This document shows positions 1,092 through 42,035 of a stretch of 45,609 nucleotides of DNA, piece after piece; positions within the stretch are counted from its first letter, which is position 1, and each line of letters starts with the position of its first letter. The stretch is from an uncultured Collinsella sp. (GTDB lineage: Bacteria; Actinomycetota; Coriobacteriia; Coriobacteriales; Coriobacteriaceae). Below the pieces are notes generated by a model. It was not told the origin of the DNA. It worked only from the letters and a program-made list of their open reading frames with translations, and did not search any database. The position numbers and the translations under genes are program-made. The DNA lies in assembly GCA_900554595.1 (NCBI GenBank), contig USHZ01000001.1:1-45609 (forward strand). Reading direction: 5' to 3'.

Positions 1092-1198
1092 GATCCGCAT
1101 GCGACGGAGGAAAACGGTTCATTTTGTCCCGACATGAGCTGTGCCCCCTCGTTTGGTACACTTAAAGGTACTGGACAAGTGAAGAGATGGGGGAGAAC

Positions 1199-2101
1199 GT
1201 GCTCAAGTTCGGTACCTACGTCCGTGTTGGAAACGCGGCCGAAGCCTATGAGCTCTTGCAGAAGAACCGCAACAACAAGATTGTGGGCGGCGGCATCTGG
1301 ATGCGCCTGGGTTCGCGTCGTGTGGCGACGGCGATTGACCTTTCGGCCTGTGGACTTGATCAGATCGAGGAGACCGAGACCGAGTTTCGCATCGGTGCCA
1401 TGTGTACCCTGCGCCAGCTCGAGCGGCATGCCGAGCTCAACGCGCTTGTCAACCATGTCTTTGAGTTCGCCGTCCACGATATCGTGGGCGTGCAGCTGCG
1501 CAACACCGCCACGGTGGGCGGCAGCATCTACGGTCGCTTTGGTTTCTCGGACGTGCTCTCGGCATTTTTGGCGCTCGATTCGTACGTTGAGCTGACGGGG
1601 GCCGGCCGCGTGCCGCTCGCCGAGTTCGTGGACATGGGCTACGTGCGCGACGTGATCGAGCACATCGTGGTCGTTAAGCACGATTACCGCGCGAGCTACG
1701 AGGCCGTGCGCAAGGCCGCGACCGACTTCCCCTCCTTAAACGTTACCGCCGCCTGGTGGGACAACAGCTGGCATGTCACCGTGGGCGCCCGTCCGCTGCG
1801 CGCGACCCTGCTGCAGGGCGAGGCATGTGGCCTTACCGCCGAGCAGCCTTCCGAGGACGAGCTGCGTGCCCTGGCCGCGTCCGTACGCGCGCTGAGCTAC
1901 GGCACTAACCTCTGGGGCTCGGCCGACTACCGCCGCCGCATCTCGGCCCCGCTGGCGATTCAGGCCGTGCGTCGCGCCGCCGGCATCGAGCTTTCGGCTG
2001 CGCTTGCCCGCGAGCTCGAGACCGTGCAAGTGCCTAAGTTTGCCACGGACGAGTATTCCTGCCGCCGCGTGCCCGGCGTCGATTCTAGCGAGGTGCGCTA
2101 A
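1199..2101 (+). CDS. FAD-binding subunit of xanthine dehydrogenase-family molybdenum hydroxylase (YgfM-like)
   Basis: IVGGGIW, IGAMCTL, QLRNTATVGGS, final GSADYRR motifs; GTG start chosen after GGGAG; stop TAA overlaps next ATG (TAATG). Confidence 0.88.
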   Translation: MLKFGTYVRVGNAAEAYELLQKNRNNKIVGGGIWMRLGSRRVATAIDLSACGLDQIEETETEFRIGAMCTLRQLERHAELNALVNHVFEFAVHDIVGVQLRNTATVGGSIYGRFGFSDVLSAFLALDSYVELTGAGRVPLAEFVDMGYVRDVIEHIVVVKHDYRASYEAVRKAATDFPSLNVTAAWWDNSWHVTVGARPLRATLLQGEACGLTAEQPSEDELRALAASVRALSYGTNLWGSADYRRRISAPLAIQAVRRAAGIELSAALARELETVQVPKFATDEYSCRRVPGVDSSEVR

Positions 2102-4932
2102 TGGCTGCCAAACTCATCGATCTTTCCTTTGCGCTCAACGGCCGCAAGGTCAAGGTTCAGATTGCCCCCGATACCATGCTCTTTTCGCTTTTGCGTGAGC
2201 AGGGTTGCGCGTCGGTGCGCTGTGCCTGCGAAACCACCAACTGCGGCCTGTGCACGGTGTGGCTCGACGGCGACCCGGTGCTGAGCTGCTCGGTTCCCGC
2301 GGCACGCGTCGAGGGCCACACCATCACCACGCTCGAGGGTCTCAAGGCCGAGTCCGAGGCGCTCGCCCGCGCTATGGCTGCCGAAGGCGCCGAGCAGTGC
2401 GGTTTTTGCGCCCCCGGCCTCATCATGAACGTGCTGGCGCTCGCCCGCGCCGCCAAGGAGGACCCGAGCCTCGTCGCCACGCGCGAGGAACTCTCGCGCC
2501 AGCTGGCCGGCAACCTCTGCCGTTGCAGCGGCTACGAGAGCCAGCTGCGCGCCATCGTCCGCTTCCTTAACGAGTCTGGCGTACAGGTGGGCTTTGAGAT
2601 GCCCGAGCTGCCGGTCAACGACACCAGCTGCGACGGCGTCACCTACAAGCAAATCACCCATAAGCAGCCCAAGAAGGACTCGAAGGCCCTGCTCGAGGGC
2701 CGTCCCGTCTACACGGGCGATATGGTGCCCGCCGGCGCGCTCATCGTTAAGCTCAAGCGCAGCCCCTATGCCCGTGCCAAGATCCGCTCCATCGATACGT
2801 CTCGCGCATTGAAGGTGCCGGGCGTCGTGGGCGTCTACACCTACGAGGACGTGCCCAAGCGCCGCTTTACCATTGCCGGCCAGAGCTATCCGCAGCCGAG
2901 TCCCTACGACCGCCTGATCCTCGAGAACCTCGTCCGTTACCAAAACGAAGAGGTGGCGATCGTCGCCGCCGAGACCGAGGAGGCCGCCGACAAGGCGCTC
3001 AAGCTCATCAAGGTCGACTACGAGGTGCTCGAGCCGCTGCTCGACTTTACCCAGGCACTCGATAACGACATCGTGGTCCATCCCGAGGGCGACGTGACCT
3101 TTATGTTCCCGCAGGGCGGTGATGTCCCGCGCAACCTGGTGTGCAGCGGTACCAGCGATTATGGCGACCTGGACGAGGCCTTCGCCCAGAGCGACATCGT
3201 CTTTGAGCGCACTTACACCAGCCAGGCCACCCAGACCGCGCCCATGGAGACCTTCCGTGCCTTCGCGACGACCGACGCCTTCGGCCGCATCTCGGTGACC
3301 ACCTCTACACAGGTGCCCTTCCACGTGCGCCGCATGGTTGCGCAGTCGCTCGACATTCCGCAGTCGCAGGTGCAGGTTATTAAGCCCCGCATCGGTGGCG
3401 GCTTTGGCTCCAAGCAGACGGGCTGCTGCGAGATCTTCGTGGCGTTCGTTACCCAGCAGACCGGCCGTCCGAGCTACTGCTGCTACACCCGCGAGGAGAC
3501 CATCACCGCGGGCAACTCGCGCCACCAGATGCAGATGACCGTCAAGCTGGGCGCCATGAACGACGGCACCATCACGGCCATCGATCTGCATACGCTGTCC
3601 AACGCCGGCGCGTACGGCGAGCACGCCACCACGACGATCGGCCTTTCGGGCCACAAGAGCCTGCCCATCTACAACCATGTGAAGGCGAGCCGCTTTAGGT
3701 GGGACGCCGTCTACACCAACACCAACCGCGGCGGCGCGTATCGCGGCTACGGTGCCACCCAGGGCCAGTTTGCCGTGGAGAGTGCCGTCAACGAGCTCGC
3801 TGACAGGCTGCACATGGACCCCGCCGACCTGCGCCTTAAGAACATGGTGCACGAGGGCGAGGTCATGCCGCAGTACTACAACGAGAAGCTCAACGCCTGC
3901 GCGCTCGACCGCTGCCTGCTGCGCGCGATGGACATGATCGGCTGGCGCGACAAGCCACTAGCCGTCGACCTGGGCGACCGCGTGCGCGCCCTGGGCTGCG
4001 CGCTCACCATGCAGGGCTCGGGTATCTCCAACGTGGACATCGCCGGCATCGACATGCGCCTGGAAGAGGATGGTTTCATTTCCATCGGCACCGGCGCCAC
4101 CGATAACGGCATGGGCGTTGACACGATCCTGGCGCAGATTGCCGCCGAGGAGTTGGGCGTGGAAAGCTCGCTGATCGTGGTGCGCGGCGTGGACACCGAT
4201 GTGTCGCCGTTCGACGCCGGCTCGTACGCGAGCTCGGGCACGTATGTGACGGGTCTGGCAGCCAAGAACGCCGCGGCCGAGCTGCGGGAGAAGATCTGCG
4301 CCAAGGCCGCCCAGATGTGGGACGTGGATGCCACCGATGTGGTCTTTGATGGTCAATACGTGCGCCTGTCCGACGAGCGTGCCGCGCGCGAGCAGAACCG
4401 CTACCTCACGCTGCGCGACTTTGCCAACCTGTGCGTCAAGAACATCGCGGGCGGCGACGCGCTGACCTCGCACGCTTCTGCCTGCCTGCCCGTTTCGCCT
4501 CCGCCGTTTATGGCCGGCATTGCCGAGGTCGAGGTCGACAAGGCCACCGGCAAGGTGACTGTGGTGGACTATGCGGCGGCTGTGGACTGCGGCACCGTGA
4601 TTAACGAGGCGCTCGCGCGCGTTCAGGCCGAGGGCGGCATTGCCCAGGGCATTGGCCACGCGCTTTACGAGATTGTCGAGCACGATGACCGCGGCCGCCT
4701 GCGCACCGGCAACTTTATGAGCTACAAGCTGCCCACGCGCCTGGATATCGGCAGAATTCGCGTGGCCTTTGAGCCGAGCTACGAGCCGACGGGTCCGTTT
4801 GGCGCCAAGTCGATCGGCGAGGTCGTTATCAACACGCCGCTCGCCGCCGTGGCCTCGGCCGTCGCACACGCCACGGGCCACCAGGTCCGCTCGCTGCCGA
4901 TCACGCCGGAGAAAGCGCTGCTGGGGGAATAG
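2101..4932 (+). CDS. Xanthine/aldehyde oxidoreductase-family molybdopterin subunit fused to N-terminal 2x[2Fe-2S] domain (XdhD-like)
   Basis: CETTNCGLCTV, QCGFCAPG, GNLCRC Fe-S motifs; IGGGFGSK, AYRGYG, GPFGAKSIGE Moco-domain motifs; 943 aa. Confidence 0.92.
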   Translation: MAAKLIDLSFALNGRKVKVQIAPDTMLFSLLREQGCASVRCACETTNCGLCTVWLDGDPVLSCSVPAARVEGHTITTLEGLKAESEALARAMAAEGAEQCGFCAPGLIMNVLALARAAKEDPSLVATREELSRQLAGNLCRCSGYESQLRAIVRFLNESGVQVGFEMPELPVNDTSCDGVTYKQITHKQPKKDSKALLEGRPVYTGDMVPAGALIVKLKRSPYARAKIRSIDTSRALKVPGVVGVYTYEDVPKRRFTIAGQSYPQPSPYDRLILENLVRYQNEEVAIVAAETEEAADKALKLIKVDYEVLEPLLDFTQALDNDIVVHPEGDVTFMFPQGGDVPRNLVCSGTSDYGDLDEAFAQSDIVFERTYTSQATQTAPMETFRAFATTDAFGRISVTTSTQVPFHVRRMVAQSLDIPQSQVQVIKPRIGGGFGSKQTGCCEIFVAFVTQQTGRPSYCCYTREETITAGNSRHQMQMTVKLGAMNDGTITAIDLHTLSNAGAYGEHATTTIGLSGHKSLPIYNHVKASRFRWDAVYTNTNRGGAYRGYGATQGQFAVESAVNELADRLHMDPADLRLKNMVHEGEVMPQYYNEKLNACALDRCLLRAMDMIGWRDKPLAVDLGDRVRALGCALTMQGSGISNVDIAGIDMRLEEDGFISIGTGATDNGMGVDTILAQIAAEELGVESSLIVVRGVDTDVSPFDAGSYASSGTYVTGLAAKNAAAELREKICAKAAQMWDVDATDVVFDGQYVRLSDERAAREQNRYLTLRDFANLCVKNIAGGDALTSHASACLPVSPPPFMAGIAEVEVDKATGKVTVVDYAAAVDCGTVINEALARVQAEGGIAQGIGHALYEIVEHDDRGRLRTGNFMSYKLPTRLDIGRIRVAFEPSYEPTGPFGAKSIGEVVINTPLAAVASAVAHATGHQVRSLPITPEKALLGE

Positions 4933-9856: not shown

Positions 9857-10409
9857 AAAAGCGCGCCTTTCGTTTCGAAATTGTTTCAGACGTTATAACC
9901 ATCAACCAGTAACCGAGCGTATTGTCGCAGGAACGGAGCGAATTTGCACTGCAATTCACAAACTAATGAAAAAACTTTTCAGAAATTTGAATTTGTCGCT
10001 TGTACAGCAGGCACTTTAGCGTAATATAGCGACCATCAAAAACGGAGACGGCAAAAGCACCGCTTACCGAGGAAAAGGTACCGTTTGCGATATTTGAATT
10101 GCGCCCGGCGATACGTGAAAGGAGAGGCAGATGCAGTTCGTACAGATCATCACCACTGCAGACAATGCCCTCCGACGCCAGCGCGCAATTTCCCGACGAC
10201 GATAACAATCGTCTCTGTTCGTATGGGGTGAAATGCCCCAACAGAGTCATTTTGAGGTCGTTGGGTTTTAGCACGACATAGACGCATGTTTCTAGGGCAT
10301 GTTGTGCTGCTTTTTGCTATTTAACCTGATATTGCACGGTTTTTGACCTCGAAATGACTTGCAACTGACCGATGTTCTAACTAGCTACCAAGGGCGAAAG
10401 GAAACAGCC

Positions 10410-30104: not shown

Positions 30105-30308
30105 GCGGTTTACCTGCGGCGGGGCGACCTGAACGGCTGCTCCGCCTTTTATTTGCGCCCAAGGGGACGGCATTCTGTAGGCATGCCTGAAACTATATTC
30201 TCAGACGAGAATAATTTCTTAGAATCATTATTCGCAACGAAGTATAATCTAATTACAGAATAAAGCCTGCGGTGGGGTACCCGGGCGTAGCATTCGAAAG
30301 GGTTGAAC

Positions 30309-31181
30309 ATGTTCGATATGGTTTCTCGCCGCGGTTTCGTCTCGCTCTCTGCTGTCGCCGCTGCCGGCCTTGGCCTTGCCGGCTGCTCCGGCAACAAGAC
30401 GTCTGAGCCGACTGGCTCCGCTGCCGGTTCTGCTAAGGCATCTTCCAAGAAAGCTGTCGAGCTTCAGGTCTTCGCTGCCAACTCTCTCGAGAAGGCCCTG
30501 CCCGAGGTCCAGGAGCTCTACACCGAGCAGACCGGCACCACCTTTGCCGACACGCAGTTTAAGGCCTCCGGCGACCTTGTCGAGCAGATGCGCGCCGGTG
30601 CCGCCGTCGACGTGCTCATCACGGCCTCCAAGGGCACCATGGACGACGCCGAGGCCGCCGAGCTCGTCGACGCCGACACGCGTGAGGATATGTTCGTCAA
30701 CGACCTCGTGATCATTCGCGCTGAGGGCTCCGACACCAAGATCGAGGCCATCGCCGACGTCGCGAATCTGGACGGCAAGATCGCCATTGGCGACGCCAAG
30801 ACCGTCCCCGCCGGCAAGTACGCCAACCAGGCACTGGCTTCCGTGGGCCTCTACACCGGTACCGAGGGTGACGACGGCGAGTATGCTCCCGAGCTTGCCG
30901 ACAAGGTGGCCCTGGCCGACAAGGTCGGCACCGCTGCGTCTTACGTCTCTACGGGCGACTGCGTGGCCGGTTTTGTCTACAGCTCCGATATCTTCCGCTA
31001 TGACGGCATCGAGGAGGCCTTCGTGTGCCCCGAGGACTCGCACAAGCCCATCGTGTATCCCGGTGCTGTCGCCGATAGCTCCGAGCACGCCGACGAGGCC
31101 AAGGCGTTTATCGACTTTTGCCTGTCCAATAAGAAGGCTCAGAAGATTTGGGCTAAGTACGGCTTTGAGCTTTCCGCGTAG
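30309..31181 (+). CDS. modA: Molybdate ABC transporter substrate-binding lipoprotein
   Basis: SRRGF twin-Arg-like signal + LAGC lipobox; FAANSL, ASGDL, VPAGKYA, VYSSD, PIVYP. Confidence 0.93.
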   Translation: MFDMVSRRGFVSLSAVAAAGLGLAGCSGNKTSEPTGSAAGSAKASSKKAVELQVFAANSLEKALPEVQELYTEQTGTTFADTQFKASGDLVEQMRAGAAVDVLITASKGTMDDAEAAELVDADTREDMFVNDLVIIRAEGSDTKIEAIADVANLDGKIAIGDAKTVPAGKYANQALASVGLYTGTEGDDGEYAPELADKVALADKVGTAASYVSTGDCVAGFVYSSDIFRYDGIEEAFVCPEDSHKPIVYPGAVADSSEHADEAKAFIDFCLSNKKAQKIWAKYGFELSA

Positions 31182-31249
31182 TGCGGCTTGGCGCGATAAT
31201 TCCATCGTTTTGTGTTTCACTCCGTCCTTGTATTCGCTTGGAGCTTTTC

Positions 31250-32692
31250 GTGCTTAATAGATTCAGCATGCTTGTCGCCTGTGCTTTGACCTTCGCGCTT
31301 TGCTGGGTGCCGGGATTTGCGTTTGCTGGGGTCGCTGAGGACGGGGCCCAAGTTGCTGCGACCGCTCATGGGCTTTCCTATGGGATTGAGGGTTTTGAGC
31401 GGTTGGCCAAGGGGACTGCTCGTGCCATGGAGGGCCAGCCTGAGGGCTACCGGTTTCCCGTTGACGAGGACGTGGACCTTGTAGTGGCGCCCGCTGCCGA
31501 TCGCGTTGTGGTGTGGATATCGCCCAAGGTGGTCGAGAAGTATGGATTGGATCCGCAGGACAACGAATGCGTATCGGGTCTCAAGGCCCTCGTCTGTAAG
31601 CTCGACAGCGCAAACTGCATGGGAGGTGCGCAGCTGGGGGACGTGGATCTTCCTTGGTATGTTACGGCGGAAACAACGTTTGATGCCGGCGGGTATACCT
31701 ATGGCTTTGACGAGCGCGGTGCGGATGGGGATCGCTATGTGGTGATTGCATCGGCCTCGGGTGATGCCAAGGGCGGCGCGCGTTGGCTTGATAGCGCTCA
31801 AATGATAGAGGCATCGTCTGTCGTGTTGCGGGATGAGCAGGGGCCCTTGGCCTCTCTGGCTTCCTTTTTAGGCGGCATCGACTACCGCCCGTTTTGGGTG
31901 TCCATAAAAACGAGCGGCCTTGCCCTGGTGATCTCCTTTGCACTGGGCCTGTTTGCCGCGTGGAAGACTATGGGTACCTCGAGTCGCATCAAGGGCCTGC
32001 TCGATTCAGTCTTTACGATTCCTATGGTGCTGCCGCCCACGGTCTGCGGCTTTCTGCTCCTCATGCTGTTTGGCCGCTCGACCGGGGTGGGCCAGTGGCT
32101 CATCGCGCACGGCATCTCGATCGTCTTTACCTGGCCTGCGGCGGTCATTTCGGCCGTCGTTGTGTCGTTTCCGCTGGTTTACCGCACGGCGCTTGGAGCC
32201 TTCGAGAGTCTCGACACGCAGATGCTCGACGCCGCACGAACCCTGGGATGGTCCGAGCGTCGCATCTTTGCCAAGCTCATGATGCCGCTCGGCTGGCCCT
32301 CCATCGCCGCCGGCGCGGTGCTTGCCTTCGCGCGTGCCATGGGCGAGTTTGGCTGCACCCTGTTCTTTGCGGGCAACTACGCCGGCATTACCCAGACCAT
32401 CCCCATCGCCATCTACTTTGAGTGGATGGGCGGCAACACGTCGGTGGCCCTCTTTTGGGTCGCCATCGTTATCGTGTTCAGTTTCCTGGTCATCCTGTTC
32501 ATCAACATGTACACGGCGCATTTTCAAAAGTATCGCGAGGGCGGTCTCTCCCGTGCGGAGCGCAAGCAGGCCAAAGAGCTCGCCGGACAGGGCGATTCGC
32601 TTGACCCGGTGGGCGGCGATGCCTTGCGCATCGATCGCGAGGCGCTGGCCGAGCTTATGCGCGATGACGCGGCACCTCAGGGAGGTCGATAA
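31250..32692 (+). CDS. modB: Molybdate ABC permease with long N-terminal extension
   Basis: C-terminal half: PMVLPPTVCGF, DAARTLG EAA loop, AFARAMGEFG, TQTIPIAIY; GTG start after TGGAG is inferred. Confidence 0.88.
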   Translation: MLNRFSMLVACALTFALCWVPGFAFAGVAEDGAQVAATAHGLSYGIEGFERLAKGTARAMEGQPEGYRFPVDEDVDLVVAPAADRVVVWISPKVVEKYGLDPQDNECVSGLKALVCKLDSANCMGGAQLGDVDLPWYVTAETTFDAGGYTYGFDERGADGDRYVVIASASGDAKGGARWLDSAQMIEASSVVLRDEQGPLASLASFLGGIDYRPFWVSIKTSGLALVISFALGLFAAWKTMGTSSRIKGLLDSVFTIPMVLPPTVCGFLLLMLFGRSTGVGQWLIAHGISIVFTWPAAVISAVVVSFPLVYRTALGAFESLDTQMLDAARTLGWSERRIFAKLMMPLGWPSIAAGAVLAFARAMGEFGCTLFFAGNYAGITQTIPIAIYFEWMGGNTSVALFWVAIVIVFSFLVILFINMYTAHFQKYREGGLSRAERKQAKELAGQGDSLDPVGGDALRIDREALAELMRDDAAPQGGR

Positions 32693-32695
32693 GCT

Positions 32696-33766
32696 ATGTC
32701 GCTCGTTTTGGATATCAAAAAACGCTATCCCGGGTTTATGCTCGACATGCAGCTTGAGGCCGGCGAGGAGCGTGTGGCGCTCCTGGGTGCCTCGGGTTGC
32801 GGCAAGAGCTGCACGTTGCGCTGCATTGCCGGCGTGGAGACACCCGACGAGGGGAAGATCGTCGTCAACGGCGTGACCTTTTTTGACTCGGTGGCGGGCA
32901 TCAATCTGTCGCCCCAGGAGCGAAAATGCGCCCTGATGTTTCAAAACTATCAGCTGTTCCCCAATATGACGGTGGCCGATAACGTGTGCGCCGGCGTTGA
33001 GGGTGCAGGCGACGCCGCGGCGCGCAGGCAACTTGCCGAACGCTACCTGGGTATCTTTGGACTGGCCGACTTTGCCGACCGCTATCCCGCGCGCCTCTCG
33101 GGCGGCCAGCAGCAGCGCGTGGCGCTCGCGCGCATGGTGGCGGCGCACCCGGGCATTTTAATGTTCGACGAGCCCATGAGCGCGCTCGACGCGTATCTCA
33201 AGAGCGCGCTTGAGCAGAACATGCTCGACCTGTTCGACGTCTGTAACCGTACCGTGCTCTACGTGAGCCACGACATCGACGAGGCATGCCGCTTGTGCCA
33301 GCGCATCTGCGTGATGCATAACGGGCATGTGGAGGAGATCGGCTCGGTCGATGAGGTGGTCCGTCATCCGCAAACGCTGGCGGCGCTGCGCCTGACGGGG
33401 TGCAAAAACACGAGCCGTGCGCGCAAGATCGGGCCCCAAGAAGTCGAGGCCCTCGACTGGGGCATGACCTTTAACGTGGGTCGCGAGGTTCCCGATGGTG
33501 TGGCGTACCTGGGCATTCGCGCAAGTTATTTCCATGTTGACAACCGTGCTGAGCGGGGCCGCAACAGCTATGATTTGCACGTGGCCCGTGTGAGCGATTC
33601 ACGTTTTGAGCGCCTGGTGCTGCTGGATGTGCCGCGTGCCGATGCGCCCACGCGTTTGCAGTGGAAGGTCAACAAGGTGGGCATACCTGTCGACGAGTTG
33701 CCGCAAGCAGGCGAGACGCTGCGCATGCATTTTGATGCCAGCAGGATCCATTTGGTTTGTCGATAG
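32696..33766 (+). CDS. modC: Molybdate ABC transporter ATPase
   Basis: GASGCGKS, FQNYQLFP, LSGGQQQR, DEPMSALD, VSHD. Confidence 0.92.
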   Translation: MSLVLDIKKRYPGFMLDMQLEAGEERVALLGASGCGKSCTLRCIAGVETPDEGKIVVNGVTFFDSVAGINLSPQERKCALMFQNYQLFPNMTVADNVCAGVEGAGDAAARRQLAERYLGIFGLADFADRYPARLSGGQQQRVALARMVAAHPGILMFDEPMSALDAYLKSALEQNMLDLFDVCNRTVLYVSHDIDEACRLCQRICVMHNGHVEEIGSVDEVVRHPQTLAALRLTGCKNTSRARKIGPQEVEALDWGMTFNVGREVPDGVAYLGIRASYFHVDNRAERGRNSYDLHVARVSDSRFERLVLLDVPRADAPTRLQWKVNKVGIPVDELPQAGETLRMHFDASRIHLVCR

Positions 33767-33969
33767 CGCCGGGTAATGCCGTCGGGGAATATAAGCCTCG
33801 GCGGCTTTGTTTTTGCCGTTCGCCGAATGAGGAATGACAAACTCTTATCAATCAAGATAATTATTTATTAGACGACGGCACACGACGCTGTCGTACGAAT
33901 GTCAACGGTGTTCGCATGGTCGATGACCGTTGATATAGTTGACCTCAACTTGTAAAGGAGGGTGCGCAC

Positions 33970-34197: not shown

Positions 34198-35481
34198 ATG
34201 GCTGAAGAATTTGATTTCCACCCGATGTGGGAGAGCCTCGGCATGAATCTTGCCGACCACGACATGCTGCTAGGCGCCGTGGGCCAGATGTATGGCGATA
34301 TGTTCTTGACGCAGAACAATCGCCCCAAGTCCACGTCCTACCTGGACTTTGTGGCCACCAACATCCACAGCGGCCGTATTAAGGAGATGCTCGACAAGAA
34401 GGAGGCTGGCGAGGCCACCAAAATCGTGGGCTCGTTCTGCGTGTACGTGCCCGAGGAGATCGTGCTTGCCTGTGACGGCATTCCCGTTGGTCTGTGCTCG
34501 GGTGCCGATTGGGCAACGGACAAGGTCGAGGAGCACTTGCCGCGCAACACTTGTCCGCTTATCAAGAGCTTTGCCGGCTTTAAGCTGGGTGAGGTCTGCC
34601 CCTACATCGAGTCGAGTGACTTGGTGGTAGGCGAGAACACCTGCGATGGCAAGAAGAAGGCCTACGAGTTTTTTGCCACGCAAAAGAACATGTACGTCAT
34701 GGATATTCCCAACGTGCACGACGAGTCGACGCTCGTGACCTGGAAGGCCGAGGTTAAAAAGCTCGCCGTCAAGATTGAGGAAGAGTGCGGCGTCACGATT
34801 ACGCCTGAGCGTCTGAAGGCCGCCATCCGCGCCGTCAATGAGAAGCGTCGCGCCCTGCAGCGCCTCGCTGCCACGCGCGCTGCCGACCCAGCGCCCATTA
34901 GCGGTCTCGACAGCCTGCTGACCGTTCAGGCCGCCTTTATGGACGACACGCCGCGTCTGACCGGAGCCATCAACGATATGGCGGCCGAGTGTGAGCAGCG
35001 TGTCGAGGCCGGCGAGGGCGTAGCACCCAAGGGGACCAAGCGCATCCTGTACACCGGTACGCCCATGGCCGTGCCCAACTGGAAGCTGTTCAGCCTCATC
35101 GAGAAAGCCGGCGGCATTGTGGTAGGCGAGGAGTCCTGCACGGGCTCGCGCTACTACAAGGATCTGGTCGACGAGTCCGGCGAGACGGTCGACGAGATGC
35201 TCGACGCCATCGCCGAGCGCTACTTTAAGATCAACTGTGCCGTCTTTACGCCCAACGACCAGCGAATGAAGGACATTGTCCAGATGGCCAAGGACCTGCA
35301 TGCCGACGGCATTGTCGACGTGGCCCTGCAGTTCTGCACGCTCTACGAGATGGAGTCGTTTGCCGTGGAGAAGGCCGCCGAGGAGGCCGGCATTCCGTTT
35401 ATGCGCATCACGACCGACTATGCCGGCGAGGACGCCGGCCAACTGCAAACCAGGATCGAGGCTTTCTTGGAAACCATTTAG
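34198..35481 (+). CDS. Double-cubane-cluster protein (DCCP) / 2-hydroxyacyl-CoA dehydratase family, long N-terminal type
   Basis: [69 protein letters not shown]. Confidence 0.9.
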
Positions 35482-35494
35482 GGCTATCCGTCTC

Positions 35495-35601
35495 GGCGGC
35501 TTCCCCAGGCACCCGATCTTGCCGTTCAAACCGTCGCTTGCGTACCAGAAGTACGCGGCGCTCCTCTTTCACGGCAACCTCGGGCACCTGGGAAAGCCGT
35601 T
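35495..35601. repeat. Palindromic element family 1, copy C
   Basis: ~31-nt arms 35495-35525 and 35571-35601, 45-nt loop TCAAACCGTCG...CTCCTCTTTC. Confidence 0.8.
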
Positions 35602-35636
35602 TCCTTGGTTGGTTAAAAGGTCTGTTAAGGAGTTAT

Positions 35637-36800
35637 ATGTCGGAAAATACTGAGCAGCCGTTGCCGCGCACGTTTGAGGAGTTCAACGAGCAACGCAAGG
35701 CGGCGTTTATTCGCGTCAAGGATTATAAGCAGGCGGGTAATCGCCTGGTCGGCTTTTTGTGCAGCTATACGCCGCTCGAGATTATCGATGCCGCGGGCGC
35801 TGCAAGTGTGGCCTTGTGCGGCACATCCGACGAGGTGATTCCCGAGGCCGAGAAGGTGCTGCCGGCAAATCTGTGTCCGCTCATCAAATCGACGTACGGC
35901 TTTGCCTATTCGCAAAAGTGCCCGTTTACGTACTTTAGCGACATGATCATCGGCGAGACCACCTGCGACGGCAAGAAGAAGATGTACGAGCTACTCAACG
36001 AGCTCAAGCGCACGCACATTCTGCATCTTCCGCAGGGTCGCGATCGTGCCTACGAGCGTGAAGGCTGGTACGAGGAGTGCCGCCTGCTCAAGGAGGAGCT
36101 CGAGGGCTTCTACGGCATCACGATTACCGACGATGACCTGCGCGCTGCCGTCCGTCGTCGCAACCGCTTGCGTGCGGCCCAGCTCGAGATGTTTGCACTG
36201 CAGGCCAACCAGCCGGCGGCCATGAGCGGCGTCGACCTGATGAGCACCATGTTTGCCGGTACGTTCAGCTTTGATATCGAGGCCTATACGCAGCAGCTGG
36301 AGCAAAAGGTCGCCAAGCTGCGCGAGGCCTACGACGCGGGCGAGCGCCCGGTCGCGGCGGATGCCAAGCGCATTCTGATCACCGGCTGCCCGGTGGGCGG
36401 CGTGATCAACAAGATCGGTCGCACCATCGAGTCCAACGGCGGTGTGGTCGTGTGCATGGACGACTGCTCGGGCGAGCGCACGGCGGCCATGATGATCGAC
36501 CCGGAGGCTCCCGACATCCTGCGCGCCATCGCCGACCGCTACTTGGATATCAACTGCTCGGTCATGACGCCCAACGACGGTCGTATGGAAAACACGCTGG
36601 CCATGTGCGAGAAGTATCACGTCGATGGCGTAGTGGAGAGCGTGCTCCAGGCGTGCCACACCTTTAACGTGGAGAGTGCGCGCATGCAGGAGGCTGTCGA
36701 GGGTGCGGGTATTCCGTATATGAAGATCGAGACCGACTACAGCAACGGCGACATGGGCCAGATCGAGACGCGCATCGCTGCCTTCATCGAAACCCTGTAG
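35637..36800 (+). CDS. Double-cubane-cluster protein, YjiM-like (2-hydroxyacyl-CoA dehydratase family)
   Basis: [68 protein letters not shown]. Confidence 0.9.
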
Positions 36801-36850
36801 GACAAATGCGGCAAAGGGATAGCTGCTTTGCCGCATAGAAGGAGGATGCC

Positions 36851-37615
36851 GTGGTTGGCATTGGTATCGACATAGGCTCGACGGCCGCGAAGGCTGCGGT
36901 GGTGGAGACGGACAACGCCATTGCGTGGACCTGCGTCATGCCGACGGGGTATTCGTCGGTCGATGCGGCCGAGCGCCTACGCGGTGAACTCGCCGCAGCC
37001 GGCTATGACGTGACGGGCGACGATGTTCGCGTGGTCGCGACTGGGTACGGCCGTGTCGCGGTGCCCTATGCCAACAAGGTAGTGACCGAGATCACCTGCC
37101 ATGGTGCCGGTGCGGTCCGCCTGTTTGGCGAGCAGGGCACGGTGATCGACGTGGGCGGCCAGGATACCAAGGTCATCCAACTCAAGGGCGGCCGCGTGGC
37201 AAAGTTCGCCATGAACGACAAGTGCGCCGCCGGCACGGGGCGCTTTCTGGAGATCATGGCCGACCGCCTGGGCATTACCCAGCAGCAGATGGCAGACCTC
37301 GCCCGCACCGGCGAGCCTACCAAGATTTCTAGCATGTGTACCGTGTTTGCCGAAAGCGAGGTCATCAGCCTGATCGGTCGCGGTGAGCCGCGCGAGAACA
37401 TTGCGCGTGGCGTGATCGACAGCGTGGTCTCGCGCGTGGCGACCATGGCCGGACAGGCCGCGGGCGCCCCGTACTACCTGACCGGTGGCCTGTGCGAGAA
37501 CGCCTTCGTAGTGGAGCGGTTGGGCGAGCTACTGGGGTCGCCGGTGACCACCTCGCCCCAGGCTCGCTTTGCCGGAGCGATCGGCGCGGCTGTCCGCGCC
37601 GCCGCCTTGGCCTAG
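36851..37615 (+). CDS. ATP-dependent [4Fe-4S] activator (HgdC/YjiL/DCCP-R type)
   Basis: GIDIGST, ATGYGR, TEITCH, DVGGQDTK, MNDKCAAGTGRFLE, SMCTVFAESE. Confidence 0.94.
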   Translation: MVGIGIDIGSTAAKAAVVETDNAIAWTCVMPTGYSSVDAAERLRGELAAAGYDVTGDDVRVVATGYGRVAVPYANKVVTEITCHGAGAVRLFGEQGTVIDVGGQDTKVIQLKGGRVAKFAMNDKCAAGTGRFLEIMADRLGITQQQMADLARTGEPTKISSMCTVFAESEVISLIGRGEPRENIARGVIDSVVSRVATMAGQAAGAPYYLTGGLCENAFVVERLGELLGSPVTTSPQARFAGAIGAAVRAAALA

Positions 37616-37629
37616 GGGTGTACCGCGAC

Positions 37630-38847
37630 ATGCGCATCCTCAATATCTCGGCACAAAAACCAGATAGCACTGGCAGTGGCACCTACCTTGCCGCGCTCGT
37701 GCGCGAACAGATCGAGACGGGACATCGCGCCGCCGTGCTTTGCGGCGCGGCACCGGGTGATACCCAAGGCGAGCTGGACCGGCGTGCTGCCGTGTTTGCC
37801 GTACCGTTCGAGTCGCCCGAGCTGCCGTTTCCCATCTGTGGCATGTCCGATGTCATGCCCTATCCCTCCACACGCTATCGTGATCTGACGCCTTCGATGC
37901 TCAAGGCATTTGAGCGGGCATTTGCTGCTGCAATCGATCGGGCGGTGGCTGAGTTTCGGCCCGATCTGGTGCTCTGCCATCACCTGTATCTGGTGACCGC
38001 ATTGGCGCGCGAGTGCGTCCGAGGCGTGCCGGTTGTTGCCGTGTGTCATTCGACCGACCTGCGCCAGCTGCGTTCGCATACGCTCGAACGCGATCGCATC
38101 GTAAGTGCGGTTCGTCGGCTCGATGCCGTCTTTGCACTCCATGCTGAGCAGGCTGAGCAGATTGGCCTGGTGTGCGGCGTCGATGCCGATCGTATCCACG
38201 TGATTGGGACGGGCTACGACCATCGCGTCTTCTGCCGCGATGCAAGCGTGGCGAGGCAGCCGGGATCGCTTGTGTACGTGGGCAAGATTTGCTTTAAAAA
38301 GGGCGTCGAGTCGCTGGTTCGAGCTGTGTCATTACCGATTGACGATGGCGTCCGCCCATCTGGCTTGGTACTTGTGGGCGGCCGCGGGGACGATGCCGAG
38401 TACGCGCGTATCGAGCGCTTGACCGCGGCCTCGGATGTGCCGGTGACGCTGGCGGGGCGCCTGGATAGCGATGGGCTCGTGCGTGCCTACCGCAGTTCCG
38501 ACGTCTTTGTGCTGCCTTCGTTTTACGAGGGTCTGCCGCTCGTGACGATCGAGGCCCTCGCGTGCGGCTGCAAAGTTGTGGCGACCGATTTGCCCGGCGT
38601 TCGTCCCTGGATGGAGGCGATGCTTCCCGGTGCTCCCGTGACGTGGGTGGCGTCGCCGCGTATGACGGATGTCGACACGCCCGTGGCGGCCGACCTTCCG
38701 TTGTTTGAGCGCGCACTGGCAGATGCTATCGCGCAGGCGCTTGCGGCGCCGCTTTCGACGTTCGAGCCGTCGGCGGTCTCTTGGGAAGCGTGCCTGGCGC
38801 GTATACTTAAAGCCGTTGATTTGTTGGAAGGGGGTTCGTATGGCTAA
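37630..38847 (+). CDS. Glycosyltransferase family 4 (GT-B)
   Basis: MRILNISAQKP..TGSG N-terminus, YVGKI..KKG, VLPSFYEGLPLVTIEALACG (EX7E). Confidence 0.9.
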   Translation: MRILNISAQKPDSTGSGTYLAALVREQIETGHRAAVLCGAAPGDTQGELDRRAAVFAVPFESPELPFPICGMSDVMPYPSTRYRDLTPSMLKAFERAFAAAIDRAVAEFRPDLVLCHHLYLVTALARECVRGVPVVAVCHSTDLRQLRSHTLERDRIVSAVRRLDAVFALHAEQAEQIGLVCGVDADRIHVIGTGYDHRVFCRDASVARQPGSLVYVGKICFKKGVESLVRAVSLPIDDGVRPSGLVLVGGRGDDAEYARIERLTAASDVPVTLAGRLDSDGLVRAYRSSDVFVLPSFYEGLPLVTIEALACGCKVVATDLPGVRPWMEAMLPGAPVTWVASPRMTDVDTPVAADLPLFERALADAIAQALAAPLSTFEPSAVSWEACLARILKAVDLLEGGSYG

Positions 38848-39889
38848 GGACACCATGAGGCTCACGTCTATGACTGCCGCGAGCGGTTGAGCCGCTAAGT
38901 TGGCTCCTGGAGCCCTCGCCCAGGTCCTGGGCGACTTGCCCAATGTGCATAACGATAACCTGCTCGTGGGGTTCGATACCTCCGACGATGCGAGTGTCTT
39001 TCGTGTTGGCGAGAACTTGGGTCTCGTGCAATCCATCGACTTCTTCCCGCCGATGGTCGACGATCCCTATTTGTTCGGTCAGATTGCCGCGGCCAACTCG
39101 CTGTCGGACATCTACGCCATGGGCGGGCGGCCGAGCCATGCCATGAACCTTCTGTGCATCCCCAGTTGCCTGGGCGTTGAGGTTGCCGGGCAGATTTTGG
39201 CGGGTGGCGCCGACAAGTGCGTCGAGGCGGGTTGCTCCATCGCGGGCGGCCACACCATCAACGACGACGAGCCCAAGTACGGCTTGTCCGTGAGCGGCTT
39301 TGTCGCGCTCGACCGTATGCTCGCCAACAGCGGCGCGCGCGTGGGCGATGTCCTGCTGCTGACCAAGGCGATCGGCTCGGGCATCATCACCACGGCCATT
39401 AAGGGCGAGCTCATCGAACAGGATGGCGCCAGCCCGATGTTCGACTCGATGCGTACCCTCAACGAGGCCCCGATTCGTCTGGCCGAGGGCCTCGAGCTTC
39501 ACGGCTGCACTGACGTCACGGGCTTTGGCCTGATCGGGCACGCGTGCGAGATGGCCGAGGGCTCGGGCGTGCAGATTGAACTGACGTCGGGCGCGGTGCC
39601 GCTCTTTGACCAGGTGCTCGACATGGCGCGTCTGGGCATTATCCCCGCCGGCGCCTACCGCAACCAGGACTTCTTTGGCTCGCGCGTGACGGCCGACGAT
39701 GACCTGGAGCCAGGCATGCTGGATGCGCTGTACGATCCACAGACCTCGGGTGGCTTGCTCATCGCGGCGCCTGCTGCCGATGTGGATGAGCTCGCGCGTC
39801 GTCTGCATGCCGAGGATCGCATCGCCGCCGTTGTCGGTCGCGTGTGCGAGGCGGTGCCGGGCGGTCCTGCTGTTCGCGTTGTGCATTAA
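38840..39889 (+). CDS. selD: Selenide, water dikinase (selenophosphate synthetase), selenocysteine-containing (U17)
   Basis: ATG 38840 in frame with TGA 38888-38890 and ORF 38900-39889: MAKDTMRLTSMTAASG-U-AAKL; DDASV, DFFPP, GQIAAANSLSDIYAMGG, GGHT, TDVTGFGL, DPQTSGGL. Confidence 0.95.
38916..38934 (+). promoter_or_regulatory. Bacterial SECIS hairpin of selD
   Basis: TCGCCCA-GGTCC-TGGGCGA; G-starting apical loop about 33 nt 3' of the UGA. Confidence 0.75.
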
Positions 39890-39949: not shown

Positions 39950-40576
39950 ATGTCTACCAAGATTGAAGTCAATGCCATGGGCGATGCCTGCCCGCTGCCC
40001 GTCGTCAAGACGCTCAAGGCCCTCAAGCAGCTCGATGGCGAGGGCGCCGTCGTGACCTCGGTCGATAACGAGACCGCCGTCAAGAACATCTCCAAGATGG
40101 CGCAGGAGAAGGGCTGTACGGCCACGGTCGAGAAGGTTTCTGACGCCGAGTGGCAAGTGACCGTGGCGACCTCTGGCGCCGTTGCCGTGGCCGATCCCGA
40201 GCAGGATGGCGCTGCTTTCTGTGGTGTCGGCGCCGGCAAGGGCAAGCTCGTCATTTCCGTCTACACCGACTGCATGGGCCGCGGCGACGACGAGCTGGGC
40301 CACAAGCTCATGAAGGCCTTCATCTTTGCCGTGACGCAGCAGGAGGAGCTGCCCGCGACCATGCTGTTCTACAACGGCGGCGCCAAGCTCACCGTCGAGG
40401 GCTCACCGGTACTCGACGACCTGAAGGGTCTGGCCGAGCAGGGTGTCGAGATCCTTACCTGCGGCACCTGCCTCGATCACTTTGGCATTAAGGACCAGCT
40501 CGCGGTGGGCGAGGTCACGAACATGTACGTGATCGTGGAGAAGATGGAGCAGGCTGTGCGCGTCGTGCGCCCGTAG
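39950..40576 (+). CDS. yedF: Selenium metabolism protein YedF (TusA/SirA + DsrE-like fusion)
   Basis: N-terminal GDACPLPVV (TusA CPxP), C-terminal MGRGDDELG, FYNGG, CGTCLDHF. Confidence 0.9.
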   Translation: MSTKIEVNAMGDACPLPVVKTLKALKQLDGEGAVVTSVDNETAVKNISKMAQEKGCTATVEKVSDAEWQVTVATSGAVAVADPEQDGAAFCGVGAGKGKLVISVYTDCMGRGDDELGHKLMKAFIFAVTQQEELPATMLFYNGGAKLTVEGSPVLDDLKGLAEQGVEILTCGTCLDHFGIKDQLAVGEVTNMYVIVEKMEQAVRVVRP

Positions 40577-40594: not shown

Positions 40595-40846
40595 ATGAGA
40601 GAAAAGCGCCCTGCGCTTGTCATCACGTTTCCTACCACGGCGGCCGCCATGGGGTGCGAGACCCTATGCATCGAGCGCGGCCTTCCCGGGCGCACGATTC
40701 CCGTGCCCGGAGAGGTCGCTGCCGGATGCGGCTTGGCGTGGAAAGCGCTGCCTTCGGATGAGGATCTGCTGCGCGGCGAGCTTGCCGCGGCGGGCGTTCC
40801 CACCGAGGGCTTTACCGTGATCGATATGTGGGAGGTCGTGCGATGA
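40595..40846 (+). CDS. DUF3343 family small protein
   Basis: ITFPTTAAAM, IPVPGEVAAGCGLAW motif; stop overlaps next ATG (ATGA). Confidence 0.82.
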   Translation: MREKRPALVITFPTTAAAMGCETLCIERGLPGRTIPVPGEVAAGCGLAWKALPSDEDLLRGELAAAGVPTEGFTVIDMWEVVR

Positions 40847-41982
40847 TCTACCTGGATAACGCGGCGACGACCATGCACAAGCCGCAGGCGGTGATCGATG
40901 CCGTGGCGCAGGCGATGTGCTCGCTCGGCAATGCCGGACGCGGCGCGACGTCGGGCGCGCTCGACGCTGCGCGTACCATCCACGGCTGCCGCACTAAGAT
41001 TGCGTGCCTGTTGGGATGCCCGCGGGCTGACCATGTGTGCTTTACGCCTAACTCGACGGCGGCGCTCAACACGGCCATTAACGGCGTGGTGCGCCCCGGC
41101 GATCGTGTGGTCACGACGGTGCTCGAGCACAACTCCGTGCTGCGTCCGCTCAACCGCCTGGCGGCAGAGCGGGGCGTGACCGTTGAGCATGCGGGCTGCG
41201 ACGCGAACGGCGTGCTCGACTATGACGAGCTTGAGCGGCTGGTCACGCCGGGCACGCGTGCCGTGGTGGTGGCGCACGCCTCCAATGTGACCGGCAACGC
41301 GGTCGACATTGCGCGCGTGGCCGCCATGGCCCATGCGGCCGGCGCGCTGGCGATCGTCGACGCCTCTCAGTCTGCCGGTACGGCTCATATCGATATGCAG
41401 ACCATGGGGCTCGACGTCGTGTGCTTTACCGGCCACAAAGCGCTCATGGGACCTCAAGGCACCGGCGGCCTGGCCGTGGCAGAGGGCATTGACGTGGCCC
41501 CTTGGGCCATGGGTGGCACCGGTGTTCACAGCTTCGATGAGCTGCAGCCGCTTGAGTGGCCCACGCGCCTTGAGGCGGGCACGCTCAACGGCCATGGCAT
41601 CGCGGGCCTTTCCGCTGGTCTCGACTTTATCGAGGCCCAGGGTGGGGTCGAGGCGATTGCTGTCCACGAGCGTGCGCTCGCTGATCGCTTCCTTGCCGGT
41701 GTGCGCGAGATTCCGGGGATTAAGCTCTACGGTGCCTTTGACCAGCTGACGCGCTCTGCGATTGTGTCGCTCAACGTGGGTGATATCGACTCTGCCGAGA
41801 TCTCGGATGCCCTCATGCAAGGGTGGGGGATTGCGACGCGCCCCGGTGCCCATTGTGCCCCGCTCATGCACCGCGCGTTAGGCACCGAGCGCCAGGGTGT
41901 CGTTCGCTTCTCGTTTGGATATTTCAACACGACCGAAGAAGTCGACACGGCTATCGATGCTCTGCGCGATTTAGCCTGCTAA
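40843..41982 (+). CDS. Class V PLP aminotransferase: cysteine desulfurase / selenocysteine lyase-like
   Basis: YLDNAATT, EHNSV, HASNVTG, DASQSAG, TGHKALMGPQGTG, EAGT, RPGAHCAP catalytic Cys. Confidence 0.92.
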   Translation: MIYLDNAATTMHKPQAVIDAVAQAMCSLGNAGRGATSGALDAARTIHGCRTKIACLLGCPRADHVCFTPNSTAALNTAINGVVRPGDRVVTTVLEHNSVLRPLNRLAAERGVTVEHAGCDANGVLDYDELERLVTPGTRAVVVAHASNVTGNAVDIARVAAMAHAAGALAIVDASQSAGTAHIDMQTMGLDVVCFTGHKALMGPQGTGGLAVAEGIDVAPWAMGGTGVHSFDELQPLEWPTRLEAGTLNGHGIAGLSAGLDFIEAQGGVEAIAVHERALADRFLAGVREIPGIKLYGAFDQLTRSAIVSLNVGDIDSAEISDALMQGWGIATRPGAHCAPLMHRALGTERQGVVRFSFGYFNTTEEVDTAIDALRDLAC

Positions 41983-42004: not shown

Positions 42005-42035
42005 GCGGGACGGGTCTTTTGCCCGTCCCGTTTTT
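42005..42035 (+). terminator. Terminator closing the selenium cluster
   Basis: GCGGGACGGGT / GCCCGTCCCGT + T-run. Confidence 0.75.

Follow-up and report, generated by a model that had tools for sequence, protein, structure and literature searches.

Directly upstream of the selenophosphate synthetase gene selD, and overlapping it, the 45,609-nucleotide stretch of an uncultured Collinsella sp. analysed here (contig USHZ01000001.1, the whole of which is called the window) encodes a glycosyltransferase of family GT4 whose linkage to selD goes beyond chance. Since the gene is wired into the selenium-handling operon of Collinsella and its relatives, its product probably works in selenium metabolism. 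A functional tie to selD had been proposed in an original prediction made from the letters of the window, and co-occurrence with selD and strong conservation of the neighbourhood support it. The activity ranked first, although tentatively, is that of a selenium-glycoside synthase, because of the tight coupling to SelD, a type of fold that takes anionic acceptors, and the precedent of the SenC/SenB pair.

SenA and OvsA, the partner enzymes by which C-Se bonds are formed, need O2. The selenometabolites described so far are selenoneine and ovoselenol, both built from the selenosugar of SenB (PMC13188914), which is presented as the sole enzyme family known to attach selenium to sugars (PMC10891094). 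A GT4 enzyme encoded in the selD-selA-selB operon of strict anaerobes of the human gut is a candidate for O2-free selenium small-molecule chemistry or for selenium buffering. Should its product prove to be a conventional glycoside, the close genomic linkage would nevertheless mark out a new accessory factor in how bacteria use selenium.

The gene stands in the run DCCP1-DCCP2-activase-GT4-selD-yedF-sclA, which is suggested to be a single transcription unit because promoter-like sites and terminator-like hairpins bracket it. The features of the predicted operon are as follows.

33778-33805: terminator-like hairpin from a pattern scan, between the modABC unit and DCCP1
33834-33861 and 33911-33939, forward strand: two promoter-like sites from a consensus scan, pattern matches only
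34198-35481, forward strand: double-cubane-cluster protein 1 (DCCP1; NF040772 487.7 bits, cut-off 350; Pfam HGD-D)
35646-36800, forward strand: double-cubane-cluster protein 2 (DCCP2; NF040772 496 bits)
36851-37615, forward strand: ATP-dependent activase of the BcrAD/BadFG family (TIGR00241 234.7 bits, cut-off 125.4)
37630-38847, forward strand: GT4-family GT-B glycosyltransferase, 405 aa (Pfam Glyco_transf_4 and Glycos_transf_1)
38840-38847, forward strand: GT4/selD overlap, ATGGCTAA, 8 nt shared by the GT4 stop and the selD start
38840-39889, forward strand: selD, selenophosphate synthetase, selenocysteine (Sec)-containing, 349 aa (TIGR00476 361.9 bits, cut-off 125)
38888-38890, forward strand: in-frame TGA at selD codon 17, read in translation as selenocysteine 17
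39950-40576, forward strand: yedF, TusA plus DsrE-like selenium metabolism protein (TIGR03527 214 bits, cut-off 110)
40828-41982, forward strand: class-V aminotransferase of the EF2568 cysteine-desulfurase family, Sec-lyase-like, called sclA here (TIGR01977 413.9 bits, cut-off 377)
42005-42031, forward strand: strong terminator-like hairpin from the scan, 11 pairs and then a T-run, closing the predicted operon

The promoter consensus scan returned six sites where 4.4 were expected. The DCCP2 frame is open from TTG 35538 and the family model agrees with ATG 35646; the product of sclA scores 346.7 bits with the SclA model NF040779, below its cut-off of 525. Pfam and NCBIfam annotation revealed no other glycan-synthesis gene in this operon.

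Conservation of the link to selenium genes

The GT4 reading frame runs from ATG 37630 to TAA 38845-38847 and the selD ATG occupies 38840-38842, so that the overlap of stop and start noted in the original prediction was confirmed, at 8 nt, from both sequence and translation. A Shine-Dalgarno-like run, GGAAGGGGG, lies 5 nt 5' of the selD ATG. Among 114 Collinsella loci, which were not de-duplicated and seven of which were too short downstream, selD was found directly 3' of GT4 in all 107 that could be scored, with an 8-nt overlap in 101, a 19-nt overlap in five and a 29-nt gap in one. The loci of the genome-collection scan are near-identical Collinsella copies (96-100% identity), and diversity came from the genome and metagenome scans.

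An even draw of 401 Coriobacteriia genomes was then searched at a threshold of E <= 1e-30. Orthologues were present in 62, namely 38 Collinsella (37 of the 144 sampled plus the window's own genome) and 24 members of three further families, and in none of the remaining 30-odd families of the draw. selD was detected in 330 of the 401 genomes overall and in 58 of the 62 carriers, the opposite of a distribution mostly over genomes without selD, which had been named in the original prediction as an outcome that would refute it. Two of the four carriers in which selD was not found hold a fragment or a broken copy: residues 256-395 only in G134, and a gene with TGA and TAG stops in G160. Within families f3, f6 and f8, selD accompanied 20 of 24 GT4-positive and 28 of 60 GT4-negative genomes (Fisher p = 0.003, uncorrected for kinship), an excess that is indicative only. 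Other GT4 genes of selD-bearing relatives, with weaker GT4-like matches to the query, served as the control; of 40 such matches, none lay within 10 kb of selD, and the nearest was 16 kb away.

Outside Collinsella, approximately 20 kb around 21 of the 24 copies (without G354, G374, and G134) were annotated with Pfam and with tblastn searches that used the window's proteins as queries. At fifteen of these 21 loci, one or more of selD, selA, selB, yedF, DUF3343, and a Sec-lyase-like gene lay no further than about 10 kb away, and the orthologue loci spanned some 15 genera in three families and at least six gene orders. The order selD-GT4-selA-selB-yedF-sclA was observed in three genomes (G330, G190, and G106), and selD also adjoins GT4 in G054, where the two genes are divergent, and in G092, where selA-selB-GT4 is convergent with selD. 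The other arrangements were GT4-sclA-yedF (G083 and G356), GT4-DCCP-DUF3343 and then yedF, sclA, and the activase in an order that varies (G037 and G164), GT4-sclA-activase with selD, yedF, and a DCCP gene beyond (G184), GT4-ABC transporter-selD-yedF-sclA (G386), and a GT4 adjoining selB (G138). The orthologues of G027 and G033 were seen with 1.5-kb flanks, and selD lies on other contigs of these genomes. In the copy of G037 (L011:676-2115), as in those of G296 and G260, an insert rich in Ser, Thr, Pro, and Glu separates the two Rossmann domains; it measures about 75 residues in G037, and the frame stays open through it.

The association between DCCP and selD is real and was noted independently by Haft, who reported 955 of 970 DCCPs from selD-bearing assemblies (bioRxiv 10.1101/2022.07.06.499078); DCCP may reduce a selenium species to selenide for SelD. 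The original prediction had suggested that a downstream step might use the DCCP pair in place of SenA. As a general rule this idea is unsupported, since many orthologues (in at least eight genomes) accompany selD, selA, and selB and have no DCCP within 10 kb, and DCCP was rejected on the same grounds as an obligatory partner of GT4. DCCPs and the activase were seen inside selenium clusters of Collinsella, other Coriobacteriia, and environmental contigs, in the window (34198-37615) and at loci L127, L133, L138, L239, L183, L204, L210, and L169.

A profile search of 1.84 billion representatives returned 636 clusters at E <= 1e-30, and the Atlas holders of the family include Actinomycetota, Bacillota, and Thermodesulfobacteriota. 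In a tree of 100 members, from which five rows were dropped for length, all 24 Coriobacteriia copies form one clade (Shimodaira-Hasegawa-like approximate likelihood-ratio support, SH-aLRT, 99) with Collinsella nested among family f6. A long branch parts this clade from 74 environmental copies, and L216 and L219 fall on the Coriobacteriia side. Among 80 environmental loci, selD or yedF lies near GT4 in three (L183, L184, and L188), and a DCCP or activase gene in five (L169, L170, L183, L204, and L210). Locus L183 reads DCCP-ABC-selD-GT4 and also holds an activase, a DCCP, a YedE-like gene, and DUF3343, and in L188 the run selD-yedF-TusA-DsrE is followed by GT4. The selenium/DCCP link recurs across the deepest split of the family and is not universal. 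The loci flagged for a PP2C_2 phosphatase-like or FemAB-like neighbourhood were L142, L187, and L188, and also L153, L160, L183, L185, L204, and L207; the first three have a FemAB-like GNAT gene and then an unnamed gene of about 385 aa near GT4, and in L153 a FemAB-like gene occurs by itself and further away. This environmental cassette suggests, from its gene content, a small-molecule pathway with a phosphorylated intermediate.

Within Collinsella, GT4 is an accessory gene, as many lineages have lost it while keeping a remnant of its 3' end, and an optional extra beside a housekeeping selD that already has known clients. We observed three forms of the operon, i.e., the full one (the window, G262, and G430), one in which GT4 alone is absent (G002, G003, G010, and G021), and one without DCCP, activase, and GT4 (G013 and G005). 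In four GT4-negative loci (L230, at 9930-10060, L231, L232, and L233) the activase-selD spacer still holds some 50 nt from the 3' end of GT4, with codons for the conserved last helix and with the ribosome-binding site of selD, and this scar is common to four species. It is the reason why an insertion of GT4 into Collinsella operons was rejected in favour of a deletion. Between species, GT4 alleles are 66-72% identical with flanking genes 90-98% identical, and the GC content at third codon positions (GC3) is 0.685 in GT4 against 0.76-0.86 in its neighbours. The lineages lacking GT4 retain a Sec-type selD. Close Collinsella relatives that share the operon with or without GT4 provide natural controls; a locus labelled Collinsella aerofaciens ATCC 25986 (L067) carries the gene.

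The selD TGA, a feature on which the original prediction is silent, aligns with the catalytic Cys/Sec position when read as Sec. The same TGA occurs in 28 of the 32 above-cut-off selD genes among 41 relatives, the other four being Cys-type, and the segment 38885-38945, with hairpins 3' of the TGA, folds at -27.3 kcal/mol (z -2.45). Because relatives share the in-frame TGA and hairpins follow it, the SelD of this operon is a selenoprotein itself. Owing to the TGA at codon 17, a plain list of open reading frames begins selD only at 38900 and would yield a truncated annotation. Genome G106 has two selD genes, a Sec-type copy beside GT4 (L127) and a Cys-type copy on contig C38. Prediction of a complex between SelD (residues 18-349, 20-row alignment) and GT4 (84-row alignment) scored 0.00, which speaks neither for nor against binding.

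Enzyme family and known systems

Membership in the GT4 family is supported by both domains, which score above the gathering thresholds (PF13439 66.6, PF00534 61.6, and PF13692 73.5 bits), by the E-x7-E motif, and by a two-Rossmann GT-B fold in an AlphaFold2 model (predicted local distance difference test score, pLDDT, 96.2). The original prediction of an EX7E-type GT-B enzyme thus stands, with the motif at E300-x7-E308. The family motifs are Q9-x-P-x-x-T14-G-S-G17, G71-M-S-D-x-M-P-Y78, K219/K224, and E300-x7-E308; Q9, T14-G-S-G17, G71-M-S, M76-P-Y78, P111, H118, G218-K219, K224-G225, E300, and E308 are invariant in 84 members, and D74 is nearly so. No NCBIfam model reached its cut-off, the best being the Corynebacterium-type glycogen synthase/GlgM model TIGR02149 (59.7 against 302.4 bits), and the automatic names given to the protein are 'glycogen synthase' and 'capsular glucan synthase'.

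Among the structural matches listed, the best were GlgM (Z 33.5), a sucrose-phosphate synthase (SPS)-like enzyme (33.0), BshA (32.9), and MshA (32.9), and matches at Z 32-33.5 extended over about 350 residues. The best sequence matches in the PDB were MshA, BshA, GlgM, and SPS (E 8e-13 to 3e-6, identity 17-23%). These four are GT4 enzymes with small anionic acceptors. The enzyme of the window shares their donor-site motifs but differs from them in its family-specific N-terminal motifs and in model scores far below the cut-offs, as with MshA (TIGR03449, 43.9 against 462.5 bits) and BshA (TIGR03999, 33 against 273.7 bits). Unlike with MshA and BshA, the partner genes of mycothiol or bacillithiol synthesis were not found in the source assembly, which is 87% complete: BshC was not detected, and the best match to the MshC model fell below its cut-off (288.6 against 485.1 bits).

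Accessory selenium genes have been recognized from gene context before, namely YedE, YedF, DUF3343, and LysR_Se (Lin et al. 2015, PMC5322559). Like them, GT4 recurs beside selD, selA, selB, and Sec-lyase genes; unlike YedF and DUF3343, its family is narrower in range and is an enzyme using an activated sugar. Table 1 of the same study places 'Shel_25140 (glycosyltransferase)' at no. 6 among the STRING partners of YedE in Slackia heliotrinireducens (PMC5322559); this protein, neither analysed nor named there, may be an orthologue. Beyond this entry, full-text searches found no description of a selD-linked GT4 family, but Supplementary Table 1 of Kayrouz et al. 2022, a list of the ten gene families that most often overlap selD, may include it. 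Neither glycosyltransferases nor YedF are mentioned in a 2026 review of prokaryotic selenium use (PMC13188914).

A candidate selenium-glycoside synthase and its alternatives

In the reading ranked first, GT4 would be a selenium-dedicated accessory enzyme from a distinct GT4 clade, co-transcribed and translationally coupled with a housekeeping Sec-type selD. Its C-terminal domain would bind a nucleoside diphosphate (NDP)-sugar in the usual GT4 mode, via K219/K224 and E300-x7-E308, and the N-terminal pocket formed by the Q-x-P-x-x-TGSG and GMSDxMPY loops would receive a small anionic selenium species, either selenophosphate from SelD or perselenide/selenide handed over by SclA and YedF. The resulting selenium-glycoside (a selenosugar or its phosphate) could keep reactive selenium in a stable form for storage, buffering, or export, or could act as the donor for a further step. 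The fold, the motifs, the structure of the operon, the conserved selenium linkage, and the dispensability of the gene are observed, and the acceptor, the product, and the role of that product are inferred.

The precedent for this proposal is the pairing of SenC, a SelD homologue, with the glycosyltransferase SenB, which emerged when Kayrouz et al. 2022 ranked genes overlapping selD and pursued TIGR04348 (bioRxiv 10.1101/2022.04.13.486033). Both enzymes have a GT-B fold, Lys and E-x7-E residues at the donor site, and a gene that overlaps or adjoins selD, and SPS and BshA are close structural neighbours of both, 6KIH and 6N1X being the nearest chains reported for SenB (PMC10891094). Since they share these structural neighbours, SenB and the GT4 family are taken as separate offshoots of a GT4-like stock, without specific kinship. 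The GT4 is about 80 residues longer and has Q-x-P-x-x-TGSG plus the extra GMSDxMPY loop instead of GN..T; it pairs with a housekeeping Sec-type selD, not with a dedicated SenC, has no SenA/OvsA partner, and occurs in an anaerobic host.

Several observations weigh against a selenium-glycoside synthase, beginning with SenB itself. By its sequence, GT4 is not a SenB, and the kinship that the original prediction proposed to look for by profile comparison found no support: the SenB model TIGR04348 gives 20 bits against a cut-off of 300 and covers only residues 214-324. In a search of the whole source genome with this model, GT4 scored 20.3 bits. True SenB genes from seven Actinomycetota genomes score 381-425 bits; a true SenB was found in none of the 22 Coriobacteriia genomes sampled alongside these, nor in the window's own genome. 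An hhalign comparison of 84 family members with six SenB sequences reached a probability of 97.5% over residues 104-338 only; it left the first 100 GT4 residues unaligned, and the N-terminal GN..T loop of SenB (N20/T23) has no counterpart there. An H-G-x-D loop is common in GT4 enzymes, and the H-S/G-T-D-L-R-Q loop of our protein aligns with T-G-T-D-L-Y-R of SenB. K224 aligns with the catalytic Lys of SenB and E300/E308 with the two Glu of its EGGAHV...E motif, an agreement that does not discriminate SenB because the same residues define ordinary GT4 enzymes. The reported pocket loops of SenB are G-N-x-x-T (N20/T23), which binds sugar and selenophosphate, and T-G-T-D (T83/T85/D86), with K158 as the catalytic Lys (PMC10891094); where SenB has G-N-x-x-T, the first loop of GT4 reads Q-K-P-D-S-T-G-S-G. 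No SenB entry appeared among the matches listed by Foldseek and VIA structure searches (at most 50 entries), a result that does not exclude similarity.

GT4 enzymes retain the anomeric configuration of the sugar, and retention is likewise expected of the enzyme studied here. SenB, on the other hand, inverts it (PMC10891094). The remark in the original prediction that the window has no SenA/EgtB-like gene holds more widely, as an FGE-sulfatase (EgtB/SenA-type) domain was not found in the whole 87% complete assembly or in the annotated neighbourhoods, and a gene for a consumer of the selenosugar was not seen either. Six of the 21 non-Collinsella loci lack a nearby selenium gene (G282, G415, G031, G406, G160, and G260), and two of these genomes, G260 and G406, are both 98% complete and have an intact-looking GT4 with selD not found. 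In G302 (L137:2958-5314), a WecA/MraY-family gene (PF00953) ends 4 nt inside the GT4 start, and a lipid-linked sugar is a possible acceptor for this divergent copy. Of the 25 environmental loci flanked by 3 kb or more on each side, only three have selD or yedF close to GT4, and the commonest neighbour is the PP2C_2 phosphatase-like gene (7 of 25). GT4 is missing from 107 of the 144 sampled Collinsella species. Finally, selD already serves Sec (selA) and probably the selenium-molybdenum cofactor (yqeB), so that adjacency to it could reflect a general selenium island.

The PP2C_2-like genes and the GNAT and ~385-aa genes of the environmental cassette, as well as a HAD hydrolase directly upstream of GT4 in G282, would fit an enzyme that forms a conventional O-glycoside on a small anion, such as a sugar phosphate or an organic acid, or that opens the synthesis of a low-molecular-weight thiol, as MshA and BshA do. 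Selenium handling would then profit indirectly, for example from a reductant or carrier able to convert selenite or Se(0) to the selenide that SelD uses. Among the matches listed, the best by sequence and by fold are also of this type, and we rank this explanation second, as rather unlikely. The three environmental partner genes accompany GT4 in none of 22 annotated Coriobacteriia clusters, however, and the single PP2C_2 match of the source genome lies on another contig in a 634-aa frame; the thiol variant is further opposed by the low MshA and BshA scores and by the missing BshC and sub-cut-off MshC-like match. An improbable alternative, ranked third, is that an ordinary envelope, glycan, or glycogen-type GT4 hitch-hikes in a mobile selenium island. 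The automatic names, the WecA/MraY overlap in G302, the deviating GC3, the dispensability of the gene in most Collinsella, and the location of most environmental homologues away from selenium genes would all agree with it. However, adjacency outlives rearrangement, including insertion of GT4 between selD and selA, across the gene orders and families described above; half of the carriers without a found selD have a damaged GT4, the control GT4-like genes keep away from selD, and the Collinsella operon is free of other glycan genes.

The position of GT4, which lies between selD and selA-selB in three of the genomes and beside selB/selA in five more, could also point to glycosylation of a macromolecule of the Sec machinery (SelD, SelB, a selenium carrier protein, or tRNA-Sec), and the gut habitat of Collinsella to an enzyme running in reverse, which would free selenium from selenosugars of the host or its diet. 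We consider this option, ranked fourth, quite improbable: the closest folds among those listed are small-molecule GT4s and not protein or tRNA glycosyltransferases, and Collinsella lineages that lost GT4 keep their Sec-type selD.

An extension of the selenium-glycoside reading, which we regard as unlikely, is that GT4 represents a second, independently recruited family of selenium-glycosyltransferases and the entry to an O2-independent selenometabolite or storage pathway that uses the housekeeping SelD, in some lineages together with double-cubane reductases. Its holders would be anaerobic gut Actinomycetota and some sediment bacteria, in which ATP-driven double-cubane reductases would make or break Se-C or Se-Se bonds, whereas aerobes use SenA/OvsA and O2.

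Genes upstream of the operon and elsewhere in the genome

A modABC unit (30303-33766) is the upstream neighbour of the selenium operon and lies outside the operon proper.

30303-31181, forward strand: modA-like binding protein (Pfam SBP_bac_11)
31181-32692, forward strand: ModB permease with a long N-terminal extension (TIGR02141 209.7 bits, cut-off 182.6)
32696-33766, forward strand: ABC ATPase (Pfam ABC_tran)

The ModB frame is 503 aa long, with the permease domain confined to residues 238-444 and no family match for the N-terminal ~235 residues. Elsewhere in the source genome, selA and yqeB are present, and selU was not found in the 87% complete assembly. The window also encodes, at 1187-4929, a molybdenum hydroxylase of the xanthine-dehydrogenase family (an FAD-binding subunit and then a fused 2Fe-2S/MoCo subunit). 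This hydroxylase, yqeB, and modABC together suggest that the source genome has the selenium-dependent molybdenum hydroxylase trait.

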